From Anaerolineales bacterium (lineage in GTDB: Bacteria; Chloroflexota; Anaerolineae; Anaerolineales; E44-bin32), in contig JBFFQB010000001.1 of the NCBI GenBank assembly GCA_041573795.1, positions 82,876 through 146,875 of the forward strand: a stretch of DNA of 64,000 nucleotides, written 5' to 3'. Within the stretch, counting starts at the first letter, position 1. The number at the start of each line of letters is the position of its first letter. A program made the position numbers and the translations under genes. Below the pieces are notes generated by a model. That model searched no databases. It saw only the letters and a list, made by a program, of their open reading frames with translations, and was not told the origin of the DNA. Below, piece by piece: positions 19,512 to 62,298 of this stretch.

Positions 19512-21896
19512 CTAAACTCCGCGCCAATTGCTACTCGCGAAAAGCACGATAGCGTAGCATAGCGCTCCGATCCCCAGTGTTATTTGGAAGCCTAAATCCA
19601 TTAAGCCCAACGAGGCTAGAACTCCGGAAATGCCTGATGTAGCGCCATTGATCGCCCAAGCCCAGGGAATGATCCCTGGAGTTTGCGCCTCTATCACGCG
19701 CATGCCGGCTGCAAAGGGGATGCCCATCAAGAAACCCGTTGGAGCGAGCCAAAGTATCGTGACCACCATGCGCATATTGAGTGAAAGGGTCAACCCATGT
19801 CGAACGATGGTCGGCAAAAGGAAAATATTGAGAAGCAGGAAACCGAGCAACAGGGCCAATGCCTTTCTTAGAGGGATGCGCCTGGAGAGAAAGCTGCCCA
19901 TACCCGAGGCCAACAGCAGCGTGAAGAGCACAAGCCCGAAGGCGAGAATAGGATAATCGAGAAGCAGGTTCATGCGAAGGATGAGAGGGATCTCCACCAA
20001 CATAAATCCTGCTCCCAGACCACCAAAATACAGCCACACTCGGTACGATGGAAGCGTTCTTTCAGGATCCCTGCGGATGGACAACCAGGGGAACAGTACG
20101 AGCGGAGTTGATAGCAAAAGCATCAAGGCCAGCATGGCGACGATGACGAAGTATCCACTCCCTCCAAAGGGTTGCCAGAGCATTCCCATGGTTGCTAGGA
20201 CCTGGGAAGATTGTGACCAGCGGAAAAAATGGAAGAAGTAGGGGCGATCATCAGTTGTGGGCTCAAGCCGGAAATCATAACTTCGAATGGTGGATTGGGG
20301 CGCCTCTAACAGCGCTTTAAATAAGCGAGAGTAGACAGGTTCGGGTAAGCGATTGAATTGATTTGTTTCCGCTTCAACAAGATCTGGGAGGTAGATGGGG
20401 TCAAAGGCATTTTCTCTCAAGAAATCACGTATCGATGTTAACTCCGCCTTCGTAAAAGGTTGTTTGCTAATGAGGATTGAGGCTGTTCTCATACCGCGAT
20501 ATGCCACGAGATGCGGGGCAGATTCATTGACATCCAGCTGGCTCATCGCCTGAATTACAGTGGACCAGACACGGGTTGCTTCGCTAGGGGGTGTGCCAAC
20601 CCAGCGTGTGATGATAATCAAGCCATTAGTGGAAAGGCGCTCCCATGCTGCCATGAAAGCCTCACGCGTGAGGAGATAGTCTTCGGTCAGGCTGAAAGCG
20701 CCAGAAGTAATCGGTCGGTAAGGATCTTTAAGTGCCCATTCGATAATGGTGTAGTTCTGGTCTTTTAAGGCAAGTACGCCCCGACTGGACCTGGGAATGA
20801 TGTGGATGCGCTTATCGGAAAGATAATTTCCGCTTGCGACGCTGAACTTACTGGTCAATAGAGCAGGTATGAGTGGTTGATCCGTCGGTAAGGAGACCTT
20901 CTCTACTCCCAAAGCCAGCGCAGCTTGGACAGCGAGACCGGTACCCGGATCAACGATCAGTACCTCCGCGCCGGGACGTAGAAGGTAGGCAAGCGCAGCG
21001 GGCAAGTGTTGTGCGAAAAGGAAGTCTTCGCTTGATTTGAGATCACCTTTCGTGATGGGGTAAGGACCTTCACCGTCAATGAAAAGTCCCATTTGCTCAA
21101 GCTCTGGCGCAGCGGATGTCAAACTCAATCCAGGAAAGGAATGGATACCACGGCTCTCAAGCACATCGATGCGAGCAGAGGCGTTTCTCTCTGTTGCCAC
21201 GATCCGGGCTCCAGGAAATTGTCGGGAAACACTCAGAGGTTTATAGGGAGATAGGCGTAAGCGTAAAGGATTAAGTGGCCATAGAAACGCGACGCACAGC
21301 AACGACGCAATCGAGACAAAAAGTGCTCGGCGGATATTGTCCGTCTCTACCAAAGCGGTCGCCAAAAAACCAACTGCAATAGAGATCCCGAGCGCTCCTT
21401 CTTCGCTGGTTAACTGTAAACCTATGAGCGCAACCAGACATCCCGCGGAAGCTCCGATCAAATTAGCGGCGTAAGGACGAAAAGCGGCTTGACCCGCCGC
21501 GCGCAGCGCTTGCCCTATGAACCACCCGGCAAAAAGGAATGGAAGCCCGGCGGAGGCAAAGTAGAGCAGCAGGATCCACAGTTGAGTACGATCCCAGACA
21601 ATGCTGAAGGAATCGAAGGGCAAGTAATTAATGATCAAATATGCCAGCAAGGTGGAGAGCGCGAAACTGCTGGCCAGCCATGTGCGTCGCACTCGAATCC
21701 TGGACAGCGATAAGGCGACACCGCTAGCGGCGTAGCCCATTACCGCCAGGCTGATGACGATAAAGGCAAAATGATGAAACTGTTGAACGGAGAATATACG
21801 TGTGAGGCAGATCTCGTAGGCCAGGCTAGCGGCTGAGATCATGATCAAGCTAATTGTCTCATTTAAGCGCATAACAGGCTCTCCGATTTCGCTCAA
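19512..21896 (-). CDS. polytopic membrane protein with central spermidine-synthase/SAM-MTase-like domain
   Basis: Multiple TM helices at both ends, central Rossmann-like segment (VLIVDPGTGLAVQAALALG). True start may be the internal Met at 21872. Confidence 0.6.
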   Translation of the reverse strand: MSEIGEPVMRLNETISLIMISAASLAYEICLTRIFSVQQFHHFAFIVISLAVMGYAASGVALSLSRIRVRRTWLASSFALSTLLAYLIINYLPFDSFSIVWDRTQLWILLLYFASAGLPFLFAGWFIGQALRAAGQAAFRPYAANLIGASAGCLVALIGLQLTSEEGALGISIAVGFLATALVETDNIRRALFVSIASLLCVAFLWPLNPLRLRLSPYKPLSVSRQFPGARIVATERNASARIDVLESRGIHSFPGLSLTSAAPELEQMGLFIDGEGPYPITKGDLKSSEDFLFAQHLPAALAYLLRPGAEVLIVDPGTGLAVQAALALGVEKVSLPTDQPLIPALLTSKFSVASGNYLSDKRIHIIPRSSRGVLALKDQNYTIIEWALKDPYRPITSGAFSLTEDYLLTREAFMAAWERLSTNGLIIITRWVGTPPSEATRVWSTVIQAMSQLDVNESAPHLVAYRGMRTASILISKQPFTKAELTSIRDFLRENAFDPIYLPDLVEAETNQFNRLPEPVYSRLFKALLEAPQSTIRSYDFRLEPTTDDRPYFFHFFRWSQSSQVLATMGMLWQPFGGSGYFVIVAMLALMLLLSTPLVLFPWLSIRRDPERTLPSYRVWLYFGGLGAGFMLVEIPLILRMNLLLDYPILAFGLVLFTLLLASGMGSFLSRRIPLRKALALLLGFLLLNIFLLPTIVRHGLTLSLNMRMVVTILWLAPTGFLMGIPFAAGMRVIEAQTPGIIPWAWAINGATSGISGVLASLGLMDLGFQITLGIGALCYAIVLFASSNWRGV

Positions 21897-37698: not shown

Positions 37699-40191
37699 GT
37701 GGCCGATAAGATGGAGCGCTTCACGCAGAGGGCAAGGCGGGTACTAAGCCTGGCGCATGAGGAAGCTGAAAGGCTACACCACAATTACATAGGCACCGAG
37801 CATCTCCTTCTTGGTTTGATTCGCGAGGAAGGTGGCGTGGCTGGTCGCGTCTTACGAGAACTGGGATTGGATCCAGCCCGTGTGAAAGAGATGGTCGAGC
37901 GTCTTACAGGTCGTGGCCGGCACACAGGAGGGCGGATTGAGCTGGCGCCTGCGACCGAGGCTGTCTTGCAAGACGCGATAGACCAGGCGCGTGGGATGGG
38001 ACACCACTATATCGGCACAGAGCATATTCTGCTGGGGTTGGTGAGCCAATCTGAGGGTGTCGGGCTTGACGTTCTCAAGCACCTTGGGATCACCCCGGAA
38101 CAAGTGCGCCGGCAGACCAAAAGAATCCTTCAGGAAAGTCCGACCCGACGAGTATCTCAAAAAGGTGCTTCACGGAAACGCGAAGCCTCTGCAAAGACTC
38201 CTTTAGTCGATCAGCTCGCGACGGATCTCACAACCCTGGCTGAAGAAGATAAGCTGGATCCTGTTATCGGTCGAGAGATGGAGATCGAACGCGTGATCCA
38301 GATCCTGGCCCGAAGGACCAAGAACAATCCCGCGCTCATCGGCGAGCCGGGCGTTGGCAAGACAGCTATCGTTGAAGGACTGGCACAACGAATCGTTGCC
38401 GGGGAGACACCGGGACCCTTGATCGGAAAACGCGTGCTTCAGCTTGATGTTGGCTCCCTGGTGGCGGGGACGATGTATCGTGGTCAGTTCGAGGAACGTT
38501 TGAAGCGTGTGATCGATGAGCTCAAAGCTTCTGACGCAATCCTCTTCATCGATGAGGTCCACATGTTGGTTGGAGCGGGTTCGGCTGGTTCTTCTGTCGA
38601 TGCTGCCAATATCCTCAAACCTGCGCTTTCGCGGGGGGAATTACAAGTCATCGGTGCCACCACGCTTGATGAGTATCGCAAACATATCGAGAGCGATGCT
38701 GCGCTTGAGCGTCGTTTCCAACCGGTTATGGTTGAAGAACCCTCGATCGAAGAAACCATCGATATCCTGCGAGGGGTACGTCGACCCTATGAGGAGCACC
38801 ACAAACTTCTGATCACAGATGAAGCTCTCGAATCGGCTGCGCACCTGTCTGCCCGCTACGTAAGCGATCGTTTCCTTCCGGACAAGGCCATTGATTTGAT
38901 CGATGAATCCGCCTCGCGCGTACGAATGTATAAGAGCGAGGAAGCAATCTCACTGAGAGAGATCATCAAACAACTTCGTCAGGTTCGTGAAAATTACAAT
39001 CAGGCGGTTGACCAGAATCGCACGGATGAGGCGCAGACCTTTGCTGACCAGGAATCGGAGCTAGAGAATCGGCTGGAGCAACTTCAGTCATCTTGGGACC
39101 GAGCGGAGAGTGACACACGTGTCACTGAAGATGATATTGCCGAGGTTGTCTCGATGTGGACCGGCGTGCCGGTTATGCAACTGGCCGAGGCGGAATCCGA
39201 ACGCTTGCTCAGCATGGAGGATGTACTTCACGAGAGGATCATCGGACAGGATGAGGCCATTACTGCCATAGCTAAAGCGGTGCGGCGATCACGCGCAGGC
39301 CTAAAAGACCCCAGACGACCGATTGGATCCTTCATCTTCCTGGGGCCAACAGGAGTTGGCAAAACGGAACTTACCAAGGCCTTGGCCGAATTTATGTTTG
39401 GCTCAGAGGATGCGCTGGTGCAGATCGACATGTCCGAGCTCATGGAGCGACACGCAGTTAGCCGTCTTGTCGGCGCACCTCCTGGATATGTTGGCTACGA
39501 AGACGCCGGTCAGCTCACCGAAGCCATCCGCAGACGGCCATATTCTATCGTCGTCTTTGATGAGGTAGAGAAGGCTCACCCCGAGGCGCACAACATGCTA
39601 CTCCAGATTATGGAGGAAGGTCAGTTGTCAGATGCGCGCGGGCGTAAAGTCGATTTTCGCAATGCAATTATTGTGATGACCTCAAATGTGGGCGCGGATA
39701 TGATCCAGCGTCAGACAAACCTGGGATTTGATCTTCCAGCGGATGAGGAGGCCGAGGAGCGCCTGGCATACGATGAGATGCACAAGAAGCTCACCGAAGC
39801 TCTCAAGAAAGTTTTCCGGCCGGAGTTTCTCAACCGGGTGGATTCAATCATGGTCTTCCACGCGCTGACCAAGGATCAAATTACGCTGATTGTTGATCTG
39901 GAAATAGAAAAAGTTTCCGAGCGCTTGAAGGAACATGAGATCCAATTGGTGACCTCCGAAGAGGCCCGTCTCAAGTTGGCCGATCTAGGTTACGATCCAG
40001 AGATGGGCGCGCGACCGTTGCGCCGTGAAATTCAGAATCGGGTCGAGGATCAACTTTCCGATGCCCTCTTAGCTGGCACATTTAAGTCGGGGGATTTGAT
40101 ATTGATCGATGTTGAGGATGATGAAATTGTTCTGAAAACCGGAAAAGCTGAAACCGAAGATGAAGCCCAAGAAGCGGTAGCCACAGTCTAA
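37699..40191 (+). CDS. clpC: ATP-dependent Clp protease ATP-binding subunit ClpC
   Basis: Double Clp_N repeat, two Walker A motifs ([30 protein letters not shown]), middle coiled coil. GTG start with GGAGGG 6 nt upstream. Confidence 0.95.
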
Positions 40192-40288: not shown

Positions 40289-41656
40289 GTGGCCAAGATA
40301 AGAACACACTATATCTGTCAACAATGTGGACGCGTTGCAGCAAAGCCCTTGGGTCGTTGTCCACAATGTGGATCATGGAACAGCATGACGGCTGAAGTGA
40401 CCACAGGGACGCGAAAAGGTGTGCCTACGCTGAAGGGGACCAGAGCCCGTGCGGTGAGGCTATCTGAAGTCGAGGGAGATCCCGAAGAGCGCTTGATGCT
40501 ATCAATTGACGAATTTGCCCGGGTGTTGGGTGGTGGAATTGTGCCTGGTTCGGTTGTGCTGATTGGGGGCGATCCAGGCATTGGTAAATCGACGCTCTTA
40601 CTTCAAACCGCTACTCAGGTGGCGCTAGAGGCACCGGTTTTATATGTCTCCGGGGAAGAATCGGAACGCCAAATCAAACTGCGCTCACGCCGCCTTGGGG
40701 TTGATGAGAGTTTGCTGAAGGATATGTATTTACTCTCGGAGACTGATATTGAAGCAGTCCTATCACAAGTGGAACAGCTGGGCCCGCAGTTGCTTATTAT
40801 TGATTCAATCCAGACCATGCATAGCGCGGAGCTTGAATCGGGCGCGGGCTCCATCACCCAGGTGCGCCAATGCGCTAGTCGGTTGCAGGGATTGGCCAAG
40901 CAATCAGGGATCGCTGTGTTCCTGGTGGGGCATGTTACCAAGGAGGGCTCAATCGCTGGCCCGCGTGTCTTAGAGCATATCGTAGACACGGTGTTGTACT
41001 TAGAGGGTGATCCTTACCATGCCTACCGGCTCTTGCGTTCAGTCAAGAATCGCTTTGGGCCCACATCTGAAGTGGGCGTCTTTGAGATGCAAACGCAAGG
41101 GTTGGTGGAAGTCCCGAACCCCTCTGAAGCCATGTTGGCTGAACGTGTGGTAAATGCACCTGGCTCAGCAGTGGCGGTGACGATGGAAGGGACACGGCCA
41201 CTGCTGGTGGAGATCCAGGGGTTAACAAGTAAGAGTTCCTTCACCAATCCGCGTCGGACAGCGAACGGTGTCGATCTAAGTCGACTCCTTCTGACCGCAG
41301 CTGTGTTATCACGCCGTGCAGGTGTTCGGGTTCTAGATGAGGACATCTTCATTAATGTCGTTGGAGGGTTGCGGATTGGAGAACCAGCTGCAGACCTCGC
41401 CATGGCTATCGCCCTGGCATCCTCGCATCGGGACAAGGTGATCCCGGCGGATATGCTGTTTGTTGGTGAGCTCGGCCTGTCGGGTGAGCTCCGGGCCGTG
41501 TCACAAATTGGTGCGCGATTGAGCGAGGCCATGAAATTAGGATTTCAACGAGCTCTAGTCCCCAAGCAGGCTCGAATTCAAACCAAGGACATTAAAGAAC
41601 TTGAAATAATCCGTGTTCGTTCGCTTAAAGAAGCCTTGCGAATAGCTCTGGATTGA
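40289..41656 (+). CDS. radA: DNA repair protein RadA/Sms
   Basis: N-terminal zinc ribbon (CQQCG...CPQCGSWNS), Walker A GDPGIGKSTLLLQ, KNRFG motif, Lon-like C-terminal domain. Confidence 0.95.
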   Translation: MAKIRTHYICQQCGRVAAKPLGRCPQCGSWNSMTAEVTTGTRKGVPTLKGTRARAVRLSEVEGDPEERLMLSIDEFARVLGGGIVPGSVVLIGGDPGIGKSTLLLQTATQVALEAPVLYVSGEESERQIKLRSRRLGVDESLLKDMYLLSETDIEAVLSQVEQLGPQLLIIDSIQTMHSAELESGAGSITQVRQCASRLQGLAKQSGIAVFLVGHVTKEGSIAGPRVLEHIVDTVLYLEGDPYHAYRLLRSVKNRFGPTSEVGVFEMQTQGLVEVPNPSEAMLAERVVNAPGSAVAVTMEGTRPLLVEIQGLTSKSSFTNPRRTANGVDLSRLLLTAAVLSRRAGVRVLDEDIFINVVGGLRIGEPAADLAMAIALASSHRDKVIPADMLFVGELGLSGELRAVSQIGARLSEAMKLGFQRALVPKQARIQTKDIKELEIIRVRSLKEALRIALD

Positions 41657-42048: not shown

Positions 42049-42233
42049 GGCTCCACCGTGGGTGAAGTGGCAAGAGGAGGAGCACCCACGGCTTCCATTA
42101 GCCCGAGCGGAACTTCTGTCGTCTCCTCGGCGACCTGGGCTTAGCGGCGTCAAGGAAGTTGTTTTTCACTCCGAGCAATAACAACCAAGAACCCGTCATG
42201 CGGAAAAGAGCAGGCGGAGCCTCAGAGGTGTGG

Positions 42234-43574
42234 ATGAACGCGGAGCGACACTGGCAAGCAGCGCTAGGACAACTGCAAATGGAACTGCCACGCGCGGCTT
42301 ATAATACCTGGGTCCGCGACGCTGAATACTTAGCTTACGAGGACAGCACCTTCATTATCGGAGCCCGGAACGCCTATGCGCGTGATTGGCTCGAGGATCG
42401 CCTGCTGGCTACGGTGAAGCACGTGCTGACAGGCATCCTGGGAAGAACGGTGGATGTCCGCTTTGTGGTTTGGCAGGGTGATCCACATGAGCAAAGCTCG
42501 AAGCCTGTCCATCCCATCCATTACCAAGAAACCAATACGCCGAGCACTTCATCGCTCAATCGGCGCTACACTTTTGAAACATTCGTTGTTGGCACCGGTA
42601 ATCGTTTGGCTCACGCCGCTGCACAGGCGGTGGCTGAAAGCCCGGCAAGAGCCTACAACCCACTCTTCCTCCATGGCGGTGTCGGACTCGGTAAAACGCA
42701 TCTCTTGCATGCCGTAGGTCATGTCTGTATTCAGGCGGGTTTGAATGTTCTCTACGTATCATCGGAGGAGTTTACTAACGATCTGGTTAACGCCATTAGG
42801 ATGCAGAACACAGCCATCTTCAGGGAGCGTTACCGAAGGATTGACGTTCTGCTGATTGACGATATCCAATTTATTGCTGGTAAGGAATCGACACAGGAAG
42901 AGTTTTTTCATACATTCAATACACTCCATGGCCAGGATAAACAGCTGGTGATCTCTTCGGATCGGCCGCCGCGCTCGCTGGTCACACTGGAAGAACGTCT
43001 TCGCTCGCGCTTCGAATGGGGAATGACGGCTGATATTCAAACGCCAGATTTTGAAACCCGCCTGGCGATTCTCCGATCCAAAGCCGATCGAGCAGGTCGA
43101 TCTGTCGATGATGAAGTCCTCGAGCTAATCGCAAATCGGGTGCAAAGTAATATCCGAGAACTTGAAGGGGCGCTGACGCGCGTCATAGCTTATGCGGATC
43201 TGAGCGGACAATCATTGACTCTTGCGTTGGTTGAAATGGCACTGGGTGAACTTGTAGCGCAGCGTGGCTCAGTGACACCGGACGATATCATCGCTGCGGT
43301 CGCACAGCGCTATGAGCTGGATAACGAGCAATTAATTGGACGCAATCGCTCAAAGCTCGTTGCACAGGCCCGACAGGTGGCGATGTACCTCATGCGCGAG
43401 GAGACCTCGAACTCGCTTCCCAAAATCGGGGATGTCCTCGGAGGCCGCGATCACTCTACAATTTTGCACGGATATGAAAAAATTTCAGGACAACTGGAAA
43501 CGAACGATACTTTGCGCCGAGATATCAAGGCAATTCGCGAGCGGCTCTTCCAAGGCGTAAAAGCAGGCCTTTAA
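42234..43574 (+). CDS. dnaA: chromosomal replication initiator protein DnaA
   Basis: Walker A GGVGLGKTHLLHA, box VII, C-terminal DNA-binding motif DHSTILHGYEKI. Start at MNAERHW preferred (ORF opens at 42159; ATG 42198 also possible). Confidence 0.95.
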   Translation: MNAERHWQAALGQLQMELPRAAYNTWVRDAEYLAYEDSTFIIGARNAYARDWLEDRLLATVKHVLTGILGRTVDVRFVVWQGDPHEQSSKPVHPIHYQETNTPSTSSLNRRYTFETFVVGTGNRLAHAAAQAVAESPARAYNPLFLHGGVGLGKTHLLHAVGHVCIQAGLNVLYVSSEEFTNDLVNAIRMQNTAIFRERYRRIDVLLIDDIQFIAGKESTQEEFFHTFNTLHGQDKQLVISSDRPPRSLVTLEERLRSRFEWGMTADIQTPDFETRLAILRSKADRAGRSVDDEVLELIANRVQSNIRELEGALTRVIAYADLSGQSLTLALVEMALGELVAQRGSVTPDDIIAAVAQRYELDNEQLIGRNRSKLVAQARQVAMYLMREETSNSLPKIGDVLGGRDHSTILHGYEKISGQLETNDTLRRDIKAIRERLFQGVKAGL

Positions 43575-48917: not shown

Positions 48918-49769
48918 TCATGCGATGGGTGACCGATCCTGTTGATAGATCACTGCGGATCCATAGCCGACCACGGAATCAAAATCACCAGTAATGTCTC
49001 CAGAGGTTGCGTGTTTTAGGACTTCTACCCGATCGGCACCCAGCCCCCGAGCAGCCCAGAGTGCGGCGGCTATTGCGCCCCGACCACAAGCAAATCCGAG
49101 ACCCTGTTCTTCTGCTGCGATCAACCCCTCGGGATTGAAGTGCTCGAGTTGTTCCAATATCTTCCGATCAAATTGCTTGGCCACGTCGTGCGGGTAGAAG
49201 TGGGATAGATCAGAGCTGGCGACAATGAGACAACGCCGACCTTGTAGCAAATGTGCCAGCGTTTCCCCTACGGATTTTCCTGCTCGTGCGCTCTGCTCGC
49301 GCAGCATGATCGGCACCAAGGTGTACGAGCTTTCTATACAGCGCTGTATGAATGGCAGTTCGATCTCGAGCGAATGCTCGCGGTCGTTTCGTAAGCGTCC
49401 AAGTTCTAGCCCCTGATCTTGTTCTAGTGTCGATTCAAACTTGTTTACCAGTTCCTGATCAATCGGGACGATTCCCAATGGGGTTGCATACGCTTCATGT
49501 GCGCTGATCAAGATGGGTTCATCAGTATACGTATGTAGCGGGGACAGAATCACGACAACTTCAAGTTGATGACCAAGGATCAATCGAAAAGCTTGCGCCG
49601 CTACGTTTCCGGAATAGCGATGCCCTGCGTGAGGAACGATTAACCCAATGATCTTCCCTTTGATATCTCGTGGTTCAACATCATGCAGGTATTGGTCAAT
49701 TGAGATCGCAAGGCTCTCTGCATCACCGGGGTACCAGGTTCCGGCGATGGGGGAGGGTCGAATATCCAT
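48918..49769 (-). CDS. MEMO1-family protein (AmmeMemoRadiSam system protein B type)
   Basis: MDIRPSPIAGTWYPGD N-terminus and VPHAGHRYSG metal-site motif. Start moved to the internal Met at 49769. Confidence 0.8.
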   Translation of the reverse strand: MDIRPSPIAGTWYPGDAESLAISIDQYLHDVEPRDIKGKIIGLIVPHAGHRYSGNVAAQAFRLILGHQLEVVVILSPLHTYTDEPILISAHEAYATPLGIVPIDQELVNKFESTLEQDQGLELGRLRNDREHSLEIELPFIQRCIESSYTLVPIMLREQSARAGKSVGETLAHLLQGRRCLIVASSDLSHFYPHDVAKQFDRKILEQLEHFNPEGLIAAEEQGLGFACGRGAIAAALWAARGLGADRVEVLKHATSGDITGDFDSVVGYGSAVIYQQDRSPIA

Positions 49770-49847: not shown

Positions 49848-49877
49848 TTGACAAACGAACAAATGTTCTGCTAGAAT
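49848..49877 (+). promoter_or_regulatory. near-consensus sigma70 promoter (TTGACA-18-TGcTAGAAT)
   Basis: TTGACA at 49848-49853; extended -10 TGCTAGAAT at 49869-49877; GGAGG at 49916-49920; ATG at 49927. Confidence 0.8.
49856..49869. promoter_or_regulatory. LexA/Cheo-type SOS box 1 (CGAACAAATGTTCT)
   Basis: Perfect GAAC-N4-GTTC palindrome, 13 of 14 match to CGAACRNRYGTTYC. Lies inside the promoter spacer. Confidence 0.75.
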
Positions 49878-49891
49878 AGAACACCCGTTCT
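49878..49891. promoter_or_regulatory. LexA/Cheo-type SOS box 2 (AGAACACCCGTTCT)
   Basis: Perfect GAAC-N4-GTTC palindrome immediately downstream of the -10, covering the predicted start site. Its centre is 22 bp from the centre of box 1. Confidence 0.7.
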
Positions 49892-49926
49892 ATCGTGGCG
49901 CGGGTCGAATTTTTTGGAGGTGTGAG

Positions 49927-50931
49927 ATGCAAAGGGCGTTCTCTCCTTCTGGTTACCTTGATCGGCAGGCGGATCAAATCGAGGCACTGCTTCTAGATTA
50001 TGAAGCCCCTGCGCGCGTTGAAGGCGGAATCATCCGTGAGGATCGCGTACGCTACCACCTCACCCCGAACGTCGGTACCGGGGTGCAGAATCTGATCGTA
50101 GCCGCAGATCGACTTGCCGAGTCGCTTGGCGTTGAAGGTTTGCACATTCAGGCTGAAGCGGATGGCATCACCATGGATATGCCGTTTCGTCCAGCTACGG
50201 GTCTGCGGATGTTGCCGCTGCTACATTCAATCCGGCGCATTCAGCCGTGCACCTCGCTGGCTGGCATGCAGGCCGGTCAGAGGCCTTTGCTGATCGATTG
50301 GTCGCGATCATCTACGTGGCATGCGTGGATTGACGCTCCCGGCGGGTCAGGTAAATCTGAACTTCTGCGATCGCTCCTGGTCTCCCTGGCGCTCACCAGC
50401 CGCAGCAGTGAGGTTCAATTTCTCGGTATTGATCTTGGTGGCCGTGAACTGGCAGTGCTGGAGGCATTACCTCAATCGACATATATGCTAGCCAGCGAGG
50501 CGGGCTATGCCGATGAATTACTGCATTGGTTAGTGGAAGAGATTGATCACCGCAGGCGCATCGGCTTTTCGAACCCTCACCTTTTTCTCTTCATCGATGA
50601 GGCTGAGGGGTTGCTAGACACTATGGGGTTGGAGCTCGATTCGCTGCTGCAAGAGATTGCGTTGAAGGGAAGACATGCGGGCGTGCACATGATTGGTGCG
50701 TGTCGGTCAACGGTTTTTAACCGATTGCCGTCCTTACAGGCACTACCCGGTATGGTGCGTGCCTTTCCTGAGCAGGGATCTGGGGCTGATCAACCTTCAA
50801 TTGTTGGCAGGTTTGTGTTCCACGAACATCATCATGAAGCTACAGTGGATATCGCCTGGTTGACCGCGCGCGATCTGGATACTGCGGTTGATCTGGCACG
50901 TTCAGGATGGCGAGCGTGTGAGCGCAGATAG
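49927..50931 (+). CDS. truncated soluble FtsK/SpoIIIE-like P-loop ATPase (alpha+beta motor core only)
   Basis: FtsK-alpha-like segment (RVRYHLTPNVGTGVQNLIVAADRLAESLGVEGLHIQAEADGITMDMP), Walker A APGGSGKSELL, Walker B LFLFIDEAEGLL. No TM segments and no gamma/KOPS-binding domain. Confidence 0.7.
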   Translation: MQRAFSPSGYLDRQADQIEALLLDYEAPARVEGGIIREDRVRYHLTPNVGTGVQNLIVAADRLAESLGVEGLHIQAEADGITMDMPFRPATGLRMLPLLHSIRRIQPCTSLAGMQAGQRPLLIDWSRSSTWHAWIDAPGGSGKSELLRSLLVSLALTSRSSEVQFLGIDLGGRELAVLEALPQSTYMLASEAGYADELLHWLVEEIDHRRRIGFSNPHLFLFIDEAEGLLDTMGLELDSLLQEIALKGRHAGVHMIGACRSTVFNRLPSLQALPGMVRAFPEQGSGADQPSIVGRFVFHEHHHEATVDIAWLTARDLDTAVDLARSGWRACERR

Positions 50932-50956: not shown

Positions 50957-51238
50957 GTGAGGTGGTTCATGAGATTGGTCAAAGTACAAGAGCCTATTCG
51001 TGTTGTTCATTCTGCACGATCGCGAATGCCAAAATCCTTCACGTGGCGGACGAGGCAGCATCAGGTGTGGAAAATTGATGGTTTCAAACAGGAGAGCATT
51101 GACCGCGCCCAGGGAATGGCGAAGCGAAGGGTGTATCGAGTACAGACCTATTCAGGTTTGCGTTGTTCCCTATCCTATGATGAGGCGAGAAATCGCTGGC
51201 GCATCGAAACGATCAGTCCGAAGGGAGTAGGAGGATGA
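50957..51238 (+). CDS. small basic Trp/Arg-rich protein, function unknown
   Basis: 93-aa ORF (alternative ATG at 50969 after GAGGTGG), 25 nt after the ATPase stop. I did not recognise a family. Confidence 0.5.
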   Translation: MRWFMRLVKVQEPIRVVHSARSRMPKSFTWRTRQHQVWKIDGFKQESIDRAQGMAKRRVYRVQTYSGLRCSLSYDEARNRWRIETISPKGVGG

Positions 51239-51486
51239 ATATCGGGATGTTGTGGTTCGATGAAGATCCATCAAGCAGCTTACCGTCACGAGTTGAACGT
51301 GCAGCTAGCTACTACCAGTCGAAATATGGACGTCAACCCAATACTTGCGTTCTCCACCCGAATACGCTGGGCGAAGTTGATCCTGCATCAATCCCGGTTG
51401 TCAAAGTTGAGACCAGTATGAGGGTATTACCCGAACACTTCTGGGTAGGCGTTGAGGACAAGAAGTTGATTTTGGATCCGGCGTAA
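51235..51486 (+). CDS. small protein, function unknown
   Basis: 83-aa ORF whose ATG overlaps the previous stop (ATGA), GGGAG 7 nt upstream. I did not recognise a family. Confidence 0.5.
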   Translation: MNIGMLWFDEDPSSSLPSRVERAASYYQSKYGRQPNTCVLHPNTLGEVDPASIPVVKVETSMRVLPEHFWVGVEDKKLILDPA

Positions 51487-51541: not shown

Positions 51542-52525
51542 CTACGCGGTAACTGCTGAGATGAAGCGATCAAGCGCGACATCAAGATCCATTTGCCCAT
51601 TCTTTGAGCGCCGGTCGATTTCTAATAGTTCATGGTAGATACGATCAAGGTCATCCATTGAGAAATTGCGCGCTTGGTTGGCAGCTTTCTTTACGACAAA
51701 ATCGCTTCGATGAATACTCTGATCAGGAACTCTAGCCGAATCGATCATTGCTCTGGCTAGCAGAATTAATCGGAATTGGCGAATAATCATTGCGAAGATC
51801 TTTTTGACATCTACTTCTTGAAGAATCTCATGAAGTTTCTTTTGCGCGTCTTCCCCGCGTCGCTGTCCGATGGCATCTACGAGGGCGAAGATATTCGATT
51901 GTCCTCGATAAGGTGTGCACTGCTCGACATCTTCGACCTGGATAGCACGTTGTAGGTCTACGTAATCCAGCAATTTGCGCAGCTCTTGAGATGCTAGGCG
52001 GGGGTCTTCCTGGGTCCACTCCGCTAACAATATTGCTGCGTCGTGCTCAATAGAACCGTCTTGAGAGCTGGCGCGATCCTTGAGCCACTGAATAAAACCT
52101 GAACCTTGCTTTGTTACACATGGGTGGATCAAGCTGAGATCTGGGTTATCTTCGGCCCACTTTTGAAGAGCTGTCTTTATCCTGGGCTTTGTTGAGCGCT
52201 GGGGGGCTGAATGCTCCAGGAGAAGAAGAGCAGTACTTTCGGGAATATTTTCAAGCAGAGACATCAGGCGCTGACGGCTTGATTCGTCTTTTTGCAAGCG
52301 CTCAGCTTGGTCAAGAACGACTAACCTGCGGGGGGATAGAAAGGGCAGTGAGCTAGCAGCCGCTTCGAACCCCGGCCAGTCAAGATCCGCTGCTTGAAAT
52401 TGCTGAAAATTCATCTCTGCTGTTGTTGAATCACCAAGCCTGCTTTTTAGACCCTGAATAAATTCGGTCATGGCAAATTCATCATCGCCATGCAGCAGAT
52501 ACACTCTTGGCGGAATGTCAGGCAT
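51542..52525 (-). CDS. holA: DNA polymerase III subunit delta
   Basis: About 330 aa. N-terminal VYLLHGDDEF clamp-loader delta pattern and helical C-terminal domains. Start at MPDIPP overlaps the upstream gene by 8 nt. Confidence 0.75.
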   Translation of the reverse strand: MPDIPPRVYLLHGDDEFAMTEFIQGLKSRLGDSTTAEMNFQQFQAADLDWPGFEAAASSLPFLSPRRLVVLDQAERLQKDESSRQRLMSLLENIPESTALLLLEHSAPQRSTKPRIKTALQKWAEDNPDLSLIHPCVTKQGSGFIQWLKDRASSQDGSIEHDAAILLAEWTQEDPRLASQELRKLLDYVDLQRAIQVEDVEQCTPYRGQSNIFALVDAIGQRRGEDAQKKLHEILQEVDVKKIFAMIIRQFRLILLARAMIDSARVPDQSIHRSDFVVKKAANQARNFSMDDLDRIYHELLEIDRRSKNGQMDLDVALDRFISAVTA

Positions 52526-53051
52526 GTAGTATCGAGGTGACGATGCGATGGAAGGGACGAGGTTCTTCTCCGACTCGATGAACGCCAAGAATCTCAAGAT
52601 CTCCTGGCGTTGCATCAACAGTCAGATGCCTTTGTGCTGCTCTACCCAATGGTTGCGCCAGCAGCAGAGCTCCCATAGATAGCAATATCGCATTCGGCAA
52701 GCGATCCAGGCGACGCCGCCAACCATCTTTATCACTTCCAAGCAACGCGATAAAGGAAGCACCACCTGCAAGAATGCCTGAGGTAACCAGGTTAGTACCA
52801 CAATTGGGATGTATCGCTAACTGACGTTCACCCTGGCGTAATCTCTGCAGTGCTTCATGAGCGATATTTTCTAGGTCGGAGGTTTCAATATGTCCATAAA
52901 TATAAAAGCCCCCAGGATCAGAACGGCCAATGAAGGATCGCCGGGGGTAATCCCGTGTGAGCAGGTGGATTGTTGCGTGCTCAAGACCATGATTGCGACG
53001 AACGTGTGAGAGTGTCGGTTGGTTGAGAAGTGATTGCAACAGATTAGGCAT
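52518..53051 (-). CDS. conserved hypothetical protein with HGLEHATIH and HPNCGTN motifs
   Basis: 177-aa ORF with His/Cys-containing motifs and a hydrophobic C-terminal half; translationally coupled to holA. Confidence 0.6.
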   Translation of the reverse strand: MPNLLQSLLNQPTLSHVRRNHGLEHATIHLLTRDYPRRSFIGRSDPGGFYIYGHIETSDLENIAHEALQRLRQGERQLAIHPNCGTNLVTSGILAGGASFIALLGSDKDGWRRRLDRLPNAILLSMGALLLAQPLGRAAQRHLTVDATPGDLEILGVHRVGEEPRPFHRIVTSILHA

Positions 53052-61168: not shown

Positions 61169-61329
61169 GGCAACCTCCTGATTAAGGCGCAGTGATTGGA
61201 GAGTGTGTTATCTAAGTTGTGCATAAATGGTGCGGAGGAACCTTATCCCTCGAGATAATCACCCTAAGCTTAGGTCGGGTTATAATCCCGGCGGCATAGA
61301 ACGTAGGTCCTAAATTACAGGAGGGGCAT

Positions 61330-62298
61330 GTGGAATACCGCAAAATGGGAAGTTGCGGGCTAAAACTGAGCGCGATCTCACTCGGAGCGTGGGTTACCTT
61401 CGGTGATCAGATCGATGCCAGGACAGCCAAGGATCTTACCCATCGAGCCTATGAGGCGGGGGTTAATTTCTTCGATAATGCAGACATTTATGCCAATGGC
61501 AAGGCTGAAGAGGTAATGGGAGGGGCAATCAAAGAACTGCAGCGCGAGAGTCTAATTATTTCAAGCAAGGTGTACTGGCGGACTATGCCGGGGCCCAACG
61601 GCAAGGGCCTTTCACGTAAGCACATCATGGAGTCATGTGAAGCTTCCCTCCGCCGGTTGGGACTCGATTATCTCGACATTTATTTTTGCCATCGCTATGA
61701 TCATGAAACGCCCTTGGATGAGGTCGTGAGAGCCATGGATGACCTCGTACGGCAAGGCAAAGTCCTCTACTGGGGGACTTCAGAATGGAGGGCGGCACAA
61801 ATCGCCCATGCTTATGGTATCGCCGAGACTTGGGGTTGTTATGCGCCAGCTGTTGAGCAACCCCAATACAGTATGCTTGTCCGAAGCAAGGTTGAGCGTG
61901 AATTGGTGCCAGCGGTGGATGATTATGGCTTTGGGATGGTTACCTGGAGTCCATTGAAATTTGGATTATTAAGCGGCAAGTACAACCAGGGGGATCCAGC
62001 TGAGAAGACTCGCCTCACGCGAGAACCGGAGTGGGGAAAGGAAGTCATAACAAACGAACATCTTGAAAAGGTGCGGCAGTTGACGGATCTGGCGGGCGAG
62101 TTGGGAGCCACGACTGCGCAGCTGGCGATTGCATGGCTGTTACGGTTCCCCCAGGTGAGCAGTGTTATCACAGGAGCAACGAAAGTTGAACATCTTGAGG
62201 ATAACCTTGGTGCGTTGAGTGTCGCTGAGAAATTAACCCCTGAGGTTCTCGAGCGAATTGAAATGATCCTCGCTAACAAACCAGAAGATGAAGAGTAA
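61330..62298 (+). CDS. aldo/keto reductase (Kv-beta-like subgroup)
   Basis: MEYRKMGSCGLKLSAISLGAW, FDNADIYANGKAEE, catalytic Y/K context. GTG start after AGGAGG. Confidence 0.9.
   Translation: MEYRKMGSCGLKLSAISLGAWVTFGDQIDARTAKDLTHRAYEAGVNFFDNADIYANGKAEEVMGGAIKELQRESLIISSKVYWRTMPGPNGKGLSRKHIMESCEASLRRLGLDYLDIYFCHRYDHETPLDEVVRAMDDLVRQGKVLYWGTSEWRAAQIAHAYGIAETWGCYAPAVEQPQYSMLVRSKVERELVPAVDDYGFGMVTWSPLKFGLLSGKYNQGDPAEKTRLTREPEWGKEVITNEHLEKVRQLTDLAGELGATTAQLAIAWLLRFPQVSSVITGATKVEHLEDNLGALSVAEKLTPEVLERIEMILANKPEDEE

Follow-up and report, generated by a model that had tools for sequence, protein, structure and literature searches.

The palindrome GAAC-N4-GTTC is the established LexA motif of Bacillus subtilis and Mycobacterium tuberculosis (PMC3323433), and the Escherichia coli ftsK gene is induced in the SOS response from the dinH promoter (PMC4080785). 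Here we describe a locus in a 64,000-nucleotide stretch (the window) of contig JBFFQB010000001.1 from an Anaerolineales bacterium of the phylum Chloroflexota, where two GAAC-N4-GTTC boxes are built into the promoter of a chromosomal three-gene operon. The operon encodes an FtsK-like motor ATPase, a DUF6504 protein and an 83-amino-acid protein that we call P83; we refer to these genes and to their counterparts in relatives as the cassette. Judging from promoter sequence and gene order, this is very probably a LexA-repressed (SOS) promoter. The operator itself would be a Gram-positive-type LexA box of an already known kind, and it adds little because LexA boxes of the GAAC-N4-GTTC type are textbook material. 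What appears to be new is the apparently lineage-wide SOS module behind it.

Several other described systems resemble parts of this locus. LexA of Dehalococcoides ethenogenes is reported to use a Gram-positive box. It shares with our locus the phylum and the type of box at the lexA promoter, but belongs to a different class (Dehalococcoidia rather than Anaerolineae), and we know of no FtsK-like cassette reported in Dehalococcoides. The imuA-imuB-dnaE2 SOS cassettes are reportedly linked to lexA, some of them under a second LexA. B. subtilis has a soluble FtsK relative, SftA. To our knowledge, neither SftA nor the SmeA-SffA pair of Streptomyces is controlled by LexA. In SmeA-SffA, as cited in PMC9380542, a small membrane protein targets an FtsK-like ATPase. 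A literature search found no paper that describes a LexA regulon in Chloroflexota or an FtsK-like cassette under SOS control.

Positions 49848 to 49891 of the window read, in order, TTGACA-aa-CGAACAAATGTTCT-gc-TAGAAT-AGAACACCCGTTCT, and the elements are listed individually in Table 1. A promoter scan matched TTGACA-18-TGcTAGAAT to the consensus at 11 of 12 positions, with a TG before the −10, and reported it as the only strong promoter site between 49000 and 52000. The −35 and −10 of this core promoter come close to the consensus of the primary sigma factor. The last T of box 1 and the G that follows it make up the TG of the extended −10, and the centers of the two boxes are 22 bp apart. We infer a transcription start at about 49884–49886, which box 2 would cover. 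The coordinates given in the first-pass annotation of this DNA for the −35, both boxes and the extended −10, together with the 18-nt spacer and the 22-bp center distance, were all confirmed. So was its by-eye impression that the window holds no other perfect GAAC-N4-GTTC, since a scan of the 64 kb returned exactly these two.

These sites resemble the Cheo/LexA (DinR) operators of Gram-positive bacteria in their palindromic core, in the placement of a 14-bp site in the core promoter, in the presence of a box at lexA promoters and in the occurrence of multiple boxes at some promoters. They differ in that the host belongs to the Chloroflexota and that the operator is built into the spacer and contributes, at its 3′ end, to the TG in front of the −10. 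As far as our literature search showed, the cassette genes are not among the described Gram-positive SOS regulons.

The same architecture recurs in relatives. Orthologous loci L005–L007 came from GTDB genomes and are among the matches listed in a motor-alignment scan of genome contigs, L085–L088 came from contig look-ups, and L206 and others came from a metagenome scan. We compared 21 cassette promoters (the window, L005–L007, L085, L087, L088, L206, L259, L153, L262, L183, L221, L174, L223, L236, L219, L160, L243, L271 and L272). The layout TTGAC-N1-4-AGAAC-N4-GTTCT-(TG)-TAnAAT-N0-9-AGAAC-N4-GTTCT was found in all 21, each having the TTGAC of the −35 and having box 1 in the spacer between −35 and −10. 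In every homologous promoter, 0–9 nt separate the −10 from the second box. When eight orthologous upstream regions were aligned, TTGAC was invariant, and the invariant columns were confined to the −35, both half-sites of each box and the −10 (in which the TA..AT columns are conserved), plus one G near the ribosome-binding site. The proteins of the aligned orthologous cassettes are 28–46% identical to those of the window, and the remaining intergenic DNA does not align. The local consensus of the box in Anaerolineae is tAGAAC-N4-GTTCTa.

The promoters of lexA itself carry the box in this class. In L272, L274, L259, L153, L262 and L183, the lexA promoter has the form TTGAC(A)-N1-3-AGAAC-N4-GTTCG-(c/t)G-(g)TAnAAT, that is, one box per lexA promoter in six Anaerolineae, in the same spacer position as box 1 of the cassette. 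The first-pass annotation had named a different operator at the lexA promoter as a finding that would refute the LexA reading; these related Anaerolineae have the same AGAAC-N4-GTTCG box, an outcome that favors it. The cassette is also linked to lexA by gene order. In at least 6 lineages, it either follows lexA immediately or shares an operon with a second lexA copy, and lexA adjoins at least 7 distinct cassette loci. The order in L259, L153 and L262 is lexA, doubled box, FtsK-like gene, with only one lexA beside the cassette. L221 has lexA, doubled box, a gene for a Cys-rich protein, a membrane-protein gene and P83, and an FtsK-like gene was not detected in that cassette. L183 reads lexA1, doubled box, lexA2, Cys-rich gene, FtsK-like gene. 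In L271, a complete 4.87-Mb Anaerolineae genome (CP070818.1), the order is lexA1-lexA2-FtsK-like-membrane protein-(DUF6504)-P83, and L272, a 105-kb contig, matches this order with the Cys-rich gene in addition. In the protein family that includes the L259 LexA, the named members are from Anaerolineae or Anaerolineaceae, and look-ups of this family led to L271 and L272. The catalytic Ser/Lys dyad is kept in all aligned LexA proteins. In L219, the double-box promoter of the cassette is common to a divergent uvrB gene. Promoter conservation, the boxes at lexA promoters and the linkage to lexA all argue for the LexA (Cheo-type) reading that was first proposed for the window.

In its relation to lexA, the cassette is like the imu cassettes: a multi-gene module that appears to travel with lexA, either sharing an operon with a copy of lexA or placed elsewhere with its LexA operators retained. 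It is unlike them in content, having an FtsK-type motor, P83 and DUF6504 in place of a Y-family or DnaE2 polymerase.

The tandem lexA genes of L183, L271 and L272 suggest an alternative that we consider unlikely, namely that a dedicated paralogue (LexA2), not the housekeeping LexA, binds the boxes and controls only the cassette. In some Proteobacteria, a second LexA does govern a single lexA-linked cassette. In these three loci, lexA2 is the first gene of the cassette operon and lies directly downstream of lexA1; the promoter of lexA1 has one box, and the promoter in front of lexA2 has two. The LexA2 of L272 is furthermore altered at the cleavage site, reading IAASAEP (an altered AAS-A) where Ala-Gly is expected, a change that may alter or abolish its cleavage. 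However, the lexA1 promoters carry the cassette motif, so both paralogues probably read the same box, and in L259, L153 and L262 there is a single lexA beside the cassette.

We think it improbable that the boxes serve mainly, or also, to repress the divergent Memo-CNNM-priA genes and thereby place PriA, the replication-restart helicase, under damage induction. Such a role would suit the palindromic form of the boxes, their location 87–122 bp upstream of the Memo ATG, the tight packing of the three genes on the minus strand and the divergent arrangement kept in the origin-proximal lineages. The promoter scan, however, detected no sigma-70-like promoter on the minus strand across the boxes, and the −35 and −10 that surround them read toward the cassette. 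The promoter layout is identical in loci where the cassette follows lexA and where Memo and priA are not adjacent, and in L005 Memo is about 330 bp away.

The doubled motif was also sought in viral and metagenome contigs as AGAAC-N4-GTTCT-N5-30-AGAAC-N4-GTTCT, with no gene criterion. In the viral set, 5 of 62 sites were directly upstream of lexA homologues. Neighbors were tallied for the 113 metagenome loci that had a flanking open reading frame. The neighbor was lexA at 12 of these loci and this cassette at 9; Y-family polymerases (one Pfam-confirmed), radical-SAM DNA-repair genes and YneA-like LysM genes were found at 3 loci each. The Y-family polymerase and radical-SAM repair genes sit on metagenome contigs of unassigned taxon. 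Actinobacterial TetR/hydrolase or TetR/SnoaL-like pairs made up 20 of the 113. In loci of this last kind (L172, L179, L189, L195, L224, L238 and about 14 more), a doubled AGAACG-N2-CGTTCT lies between divergent TetR-like and alpha/beta-hydrolase or SnoaL-like genes, and the contigs are high-GC and apparently actinobacterial. A TetR-type family thus seems to use the doubled motif as its operator as well. The same scan revealed a distinct LexA-like clade with the N-terminus MNERDPEYLAALQRHYA and a promoter of the form TTGAC-box-TACAAT-box (L089, L116, L137 and L147 in the viral set; L210, L225 and L267 in the metagenome set); contigs bearing this clade are classed as viral.

The many actinobacterial TetR/hydrolase contigs could be taken to mean that the palindromes of the cassette are bound by a non-LexA regulator, for example a TetR-family repressor, and that the operon lies outside the DNA-damage response. 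This is very unlikely. None of the 21 cassette loci is flanked by a gene for a TetR-type or other non-LexA regulator, and the gene divergent from the cassette in the window is Memo. The gene that does adjoin at least 7 of the loci is lexA, whose own promoter has the box, and one cassette promoter is shared with uvrB.

As a bare count, the two matches in the window are not significant, because about one GAAC-N4-GTTC match is expected by chance in 64 kb and 27 of 100 shuffles of the window contained two or more. Their closeness is significant: of 2000 mononucleotide shuffles, 1 produced a pair within 60 bp, and by calculation about 0.001 such pairs are expected per window. An 18-bp weight matrix derived from 48 Anaerolineae sites scored box 2 at 24.5 bits and box 1 at 19.1 bits. 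The next-best site in the window reached 12.5 bits, and the maxima of shuffled sequences had a mean of 10.7 and a largest value of 17.3. The matrix scan of the window gave nothing else above chance, with no site at radA, priA, dnaA, clpC, holA or holB, and when 220 kb of Anaerolineae DNA were scanned, no site that reached 14 bits fell outside a cassette or lexA promoter. The 12.5-bit LexA-like site, ATAGAACGTAGGTCCTAA, is just 3′ of a hexamer resembling TATAAT, and an aldo/keto reductase gene starts 17 nt downstream of it. It was considered as a third operator and rejected: its score is inside the range of the shuffle maxima and it is probably a chance match. That boxes 1 and 2 are themselves chance matches in an ordinary promoter can be dismissed with near certainty, for although their number is usual for 64 kb, their close pairing is not, and both positions are conserved over 21 promoters despite the low protein identity; it is these two facts, and not the count, that bear out the first-pass judgment that chance was very unlikely.

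The first gene of the operon encodes a protein whose Walker A motif is G140-x-G142-K143-S and whose Walker B motif includes D224; G140, G142, K143 and D224 are invariant. We found 98 homologues, and the named ones come from metagenome-assembled genomes of Anaerolineales or Anaerolineaceae (Chloroflexota). The family profile matches the FtsK motor (2iuu, 2ius) and EccC in the PDB. An AlphaFold2 model of the protein (predicted local distance difference test score, pLDDT, 85.5) had its best Foldseek matches in the double-stranded-DNA-bound FtsK alpha-beta motors 2iut, 6t8g and 6t8b (E ~ 1e-22), followed by the conjugative coupling protein TcpA and then EccC. A gamma domain was found neither by Pfam nor in the model, and the protein ends about 60 residues past the beta domain. 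Nor was there a membrane domain, as the protein starts directly with the alpha domain and the model contains no transmembrane-like helices. Because it lacks both the gamma and the membrane domain, which help to define FtsK proper, we call the protein FtsK-like and not FtsK. A type VII secretion ATPase (EccC/EssC) was considered and rejected: the protein has a single ATPase domain, its scores against the NCBIfam EccC and EssC models are far under the cut-offs, and there are no type VII secretion system genes nearby.

The parallel to E. coli ftsK and dinH is that an FtsK-family motor would belong to the LexA regulon, here by prediction. The proteins themselves differ considerably. E. coli FtsK is a 147-kDa, membrane-anchored, essential division protein with a gamma domain, whereas the protein encoded here is a 334-amino-acid soluble motor with dedicated small partners. 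The operators differ too, the E. coli LexA motif being CTGT-N8-ACAG and the one here GAAC-N4-GTTC.

The ATG of the second gene, at 50969, is preceded by the ribosome-binding-site-like sequence GAGGTGG, and there is an alternative GTG start at 50957. DUF6504 is found in 7 other distinct cassette loci and is absent in some, and no paper mentioning DUF6504 turned up in the literature search. In L087, a TfoX_C-domain protein occupies the usual DUF6504 place. The ATG of P83 overlaps the stop codon of the second gene (ATGA), an arrangement that implies that the two genes are translationally coupled. P83 is present in all cassette loci whose sequence extends that far. It had no match in Pfam, NCBIfam or PHROG, and a Foldseek search of the PDB with its AlphaFold2 model (pLDDT 79) gave no significant match and none better than E = 0.09. 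A word-based search for P83 homologues found close relatives only, and a profile search of 1.84 billion representatives yielded a family of 1946 clusters at 50% identity; in the one examined cluster that carries names, the members are Chloroflexota. The first-pass annotation had described the controlled genes as being of unknown function. That description still fits P83 and DUF6504, but no longer fits the first gene, an FtsK alpha-beta motor ATPase.

Cassettes of other lineages contain additional small proteins. In most of them, a protein of about 115–155 amino acids is encoded directly 3′ of the FtsK-like gene; it is missing from the cassette in the window. It looks like a membrane protein, with hydrophobic stretches visible by eye and weak, sub-threshold Pfam matches to membrane families, and its position beside the motor recalls the small SOS division inhibitors or the SmeA adaptor. 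Several lexA-linked cassettes have a Cys-rich protein before the FtsK-like gene, with the motifs DGRI[IV]C[SR]K and NLCRxCPA and with no Pfam family; it too is absent from the window cassette. L160 and L196 have a very diverged FtsK-like protein of 277 amino acids (Pfam E = 0.027) between the boxes and P83. Like SftA and the SmeA-SffA pair, these motors have no full membrane domain of their own, and many Anaerolineae cassettes, like SmeA-SffA, have an apparent small membrane protein beside the motor. The window cassette has no such membrane protein, and P83 and DUF6504 have no known counterpart in those systems.

Table 1. Positions of the promoter elements, cassette genes and other features in the window and in related loci.
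Feature	Locus	Position	Strand	Remarks
−35 hexamer TTGACA	window	49848–49853	+	sequence and promoter scan
SOS box 1, CGAACAAATGTTCT	window	49856–49869		predicted; fills −35/−10 spacer; perfect GAAC-N4-GTTC core at 49857–49868
Extended −10, TGCTAGAAT	window	49869–49877	+	TAGAAT with TG, 18-nt spacer (promoter scan)
SOS box 2, AGAACACCCGTTCT	window	49878–49891		predicted; abuts −10; perfect GAAC-N4-GTTC core at 49879–49890
Ribosome-binding site GGAGG	window	49916–49920	+	6 nt 5′ of ATG at 49927; sequence reading
Gene 1, soluble FtsK/SpoIIIE-type alpha-beta motor ATPase	window	49927–50931	+	334 amino acids; PF01580, E = 1.3e-16
Gene 2, DUF6504 protein	window	50969–51238	+	89 amino acids; PF20114, E = 2e-6
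Gene 3, P83	window	51235–51486	+	83 amino acids; starts MNIGMLWFD, contains KYGRQPN
Memo-family gene	window	48918–49769	−	first of Memo-CNNM/CorC-priA; PF01875; ATG ~87 bp from box 1
clpC	window	37699–40191		
radA	window	40289–41656		
dnaA	window	42159–43574		
DUF6391 gene	window	52518–53051		
794-amino-acid open reading frame	window	19512–21896		no Pfam family at E ≤ 1e-5
LexA-like site ATAGAACGTAGGTCCTAA	window	61296–61313		12.5 bits; rejected as operator
Aldo/keto reductase gene	window	61330–62298		
Cassette double-box promoter common to divergent uvrB	L219	2022–2059 and 2192–4198		
Tandem lexA paralogues	L271	8001–9379		
Tandem lexA paralogues	L272	8001–9376		
Tandem lexA paralogues	L183	895–2270		
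Cys-rich protein	L183	459–887		
Cys-rich protein	L174	329–781		
Cys-rich protein	L221	3080–3691		
Cys-rich protein	L272	9384–9812		
Cys-rich protein	L243	~7690 onward		
Small protein	L259	2928–3356		
Small protein	L219	475–855		
Small protein	L223	582–935		
Small protein	L236	1977–2447		
Small protein	L221	2721–3083		
Small protein	L085	11032–11448		
Small protein	L271	10988–11377		
Small protein	L272	11035–11382		
TfoX_C-domain protein	L087	11387–11641		
Diverged FtsK-like protein	L160	2680–3513		277 amino acids

The window spans the neighborhood of the replication origin, with clpC, radA and dnaA. After dnaA come the priA, CNNM/CorC and Memo genes on the minus strand, then the divergent promoter with the three-gene operon, and beyond the operon a convergent holA, DUF6391 and holB. 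The gene order around the locus is the same in distant relatives. In the window and in L005, L006, L085 and L088, the DUF6391 gene always lies between holA and holB, a position that suggests a link to the clamp loader. Elsewhere in the window, a 794-amino-acid open reading frame has no assigned family (Table 1). An origin of the operon from a mobile element or prophage was considered and is unlikely, given the synteny with dnaA, priA and holA in several lineages and the fact that the only PHROG matches are generic FtsK ones.

If the operon is under LexA control, the following sequence of events would be expected. In undamaged cells, LexA dimers on both boxes would block binding of RNA polymerase or formation of the open complex. 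DNA damage would produce RecA filaments on single-stranded DNA, which would stimulate the self-cleavage of LexA; LexA would leave the DNA and the strong promoter would fire. With two operators on a strong promoter, repression would be tight and its release would bring a large burst of expression. A single mRNA would encode the FtsK-like motor, DUF6504 and P83. Beyond this point the proposal is much more speculative. The motor might act as an FtsK-type hexamer translocating double-stranded DNA, and its small partners might target or regulate it in place of the missing anchor and sequence-reading gamma domain. These partners always include P83 and often DUF6504, and in other lineages also the small membrane protein and the Cys-rich protein. 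After damage, such a system could conceivably clear or re-segregate chromosomes, or couple division to repair. Our confidence in any specific function for the operon products is low.

Several observations weigh against the LexA-regulated reading of the operon, or against parts of it. A search for lexA and recA in the window and in the 6.6 kb beyond its left end found neither, so the link to LexA comes from relatives of the same class. The doubled motif alone does not name the regulator, because the actinobacterial TetR/hydrolase pairs use it as well. The centers of the paired boxes are separated by 20–22 bp or by 27–31 bp among homologous promoters, so strict helical phasing is not conserved and cooperative binding on one face of the DNA is at most a possibility. 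The first-pass annotation had stressed that both boxes of the window face the same side of the helix, and this argument has to be given up as a conserved feature. Finally, FtsK-type ATPases include protein translocases such as EccC, and the function of the product is read from its fold.

Taking the LexA-regulated reading with these points in mind, we regard the cassette as a long-standing component of the SOS response in Anaerolineae, which probably now lies beside the replication-origin region in the lineage of the window, with lexA linkage as the earlier state if, as we infer, the move was in that direction. A broader proposal, which we hold tentatively and with slightly less belief than doubt, is that the cassette is an undescribed SOS effector module across the sampled Anaerolineae, composed of the gamma-less motor, P83 and, often, DUF6504, membrane and Cys-rich proteins. 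Under this proposal, the cassette was ancestrally in the lexA operon and would therefore be a core SOS output of the class, perhaps a damage-induced DNA-translocation or division-checkpoint system with new adaptors.

The class Anaerolineae is large, for the most part uncultured, and abundant in sludge and sediments. In its sampled members, both the architecture of the promoter and the order of the genes connect a conserved cassette with lexA. This provides a first testable function, in the DNA-damage response, for a subfamily of soluble FtsK motors, for DUF6504 and for the P83 family with its approximately 1900 clusters, and the site matrix can be used for mapping the Chloroflexota SOS regulon. 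Should the motor prove to act on DNA, E. coli ftsK/dinH would be joined by a second SOS-controlled FtsK-family motor, and in this case a dedicated stand-alone enzyme.

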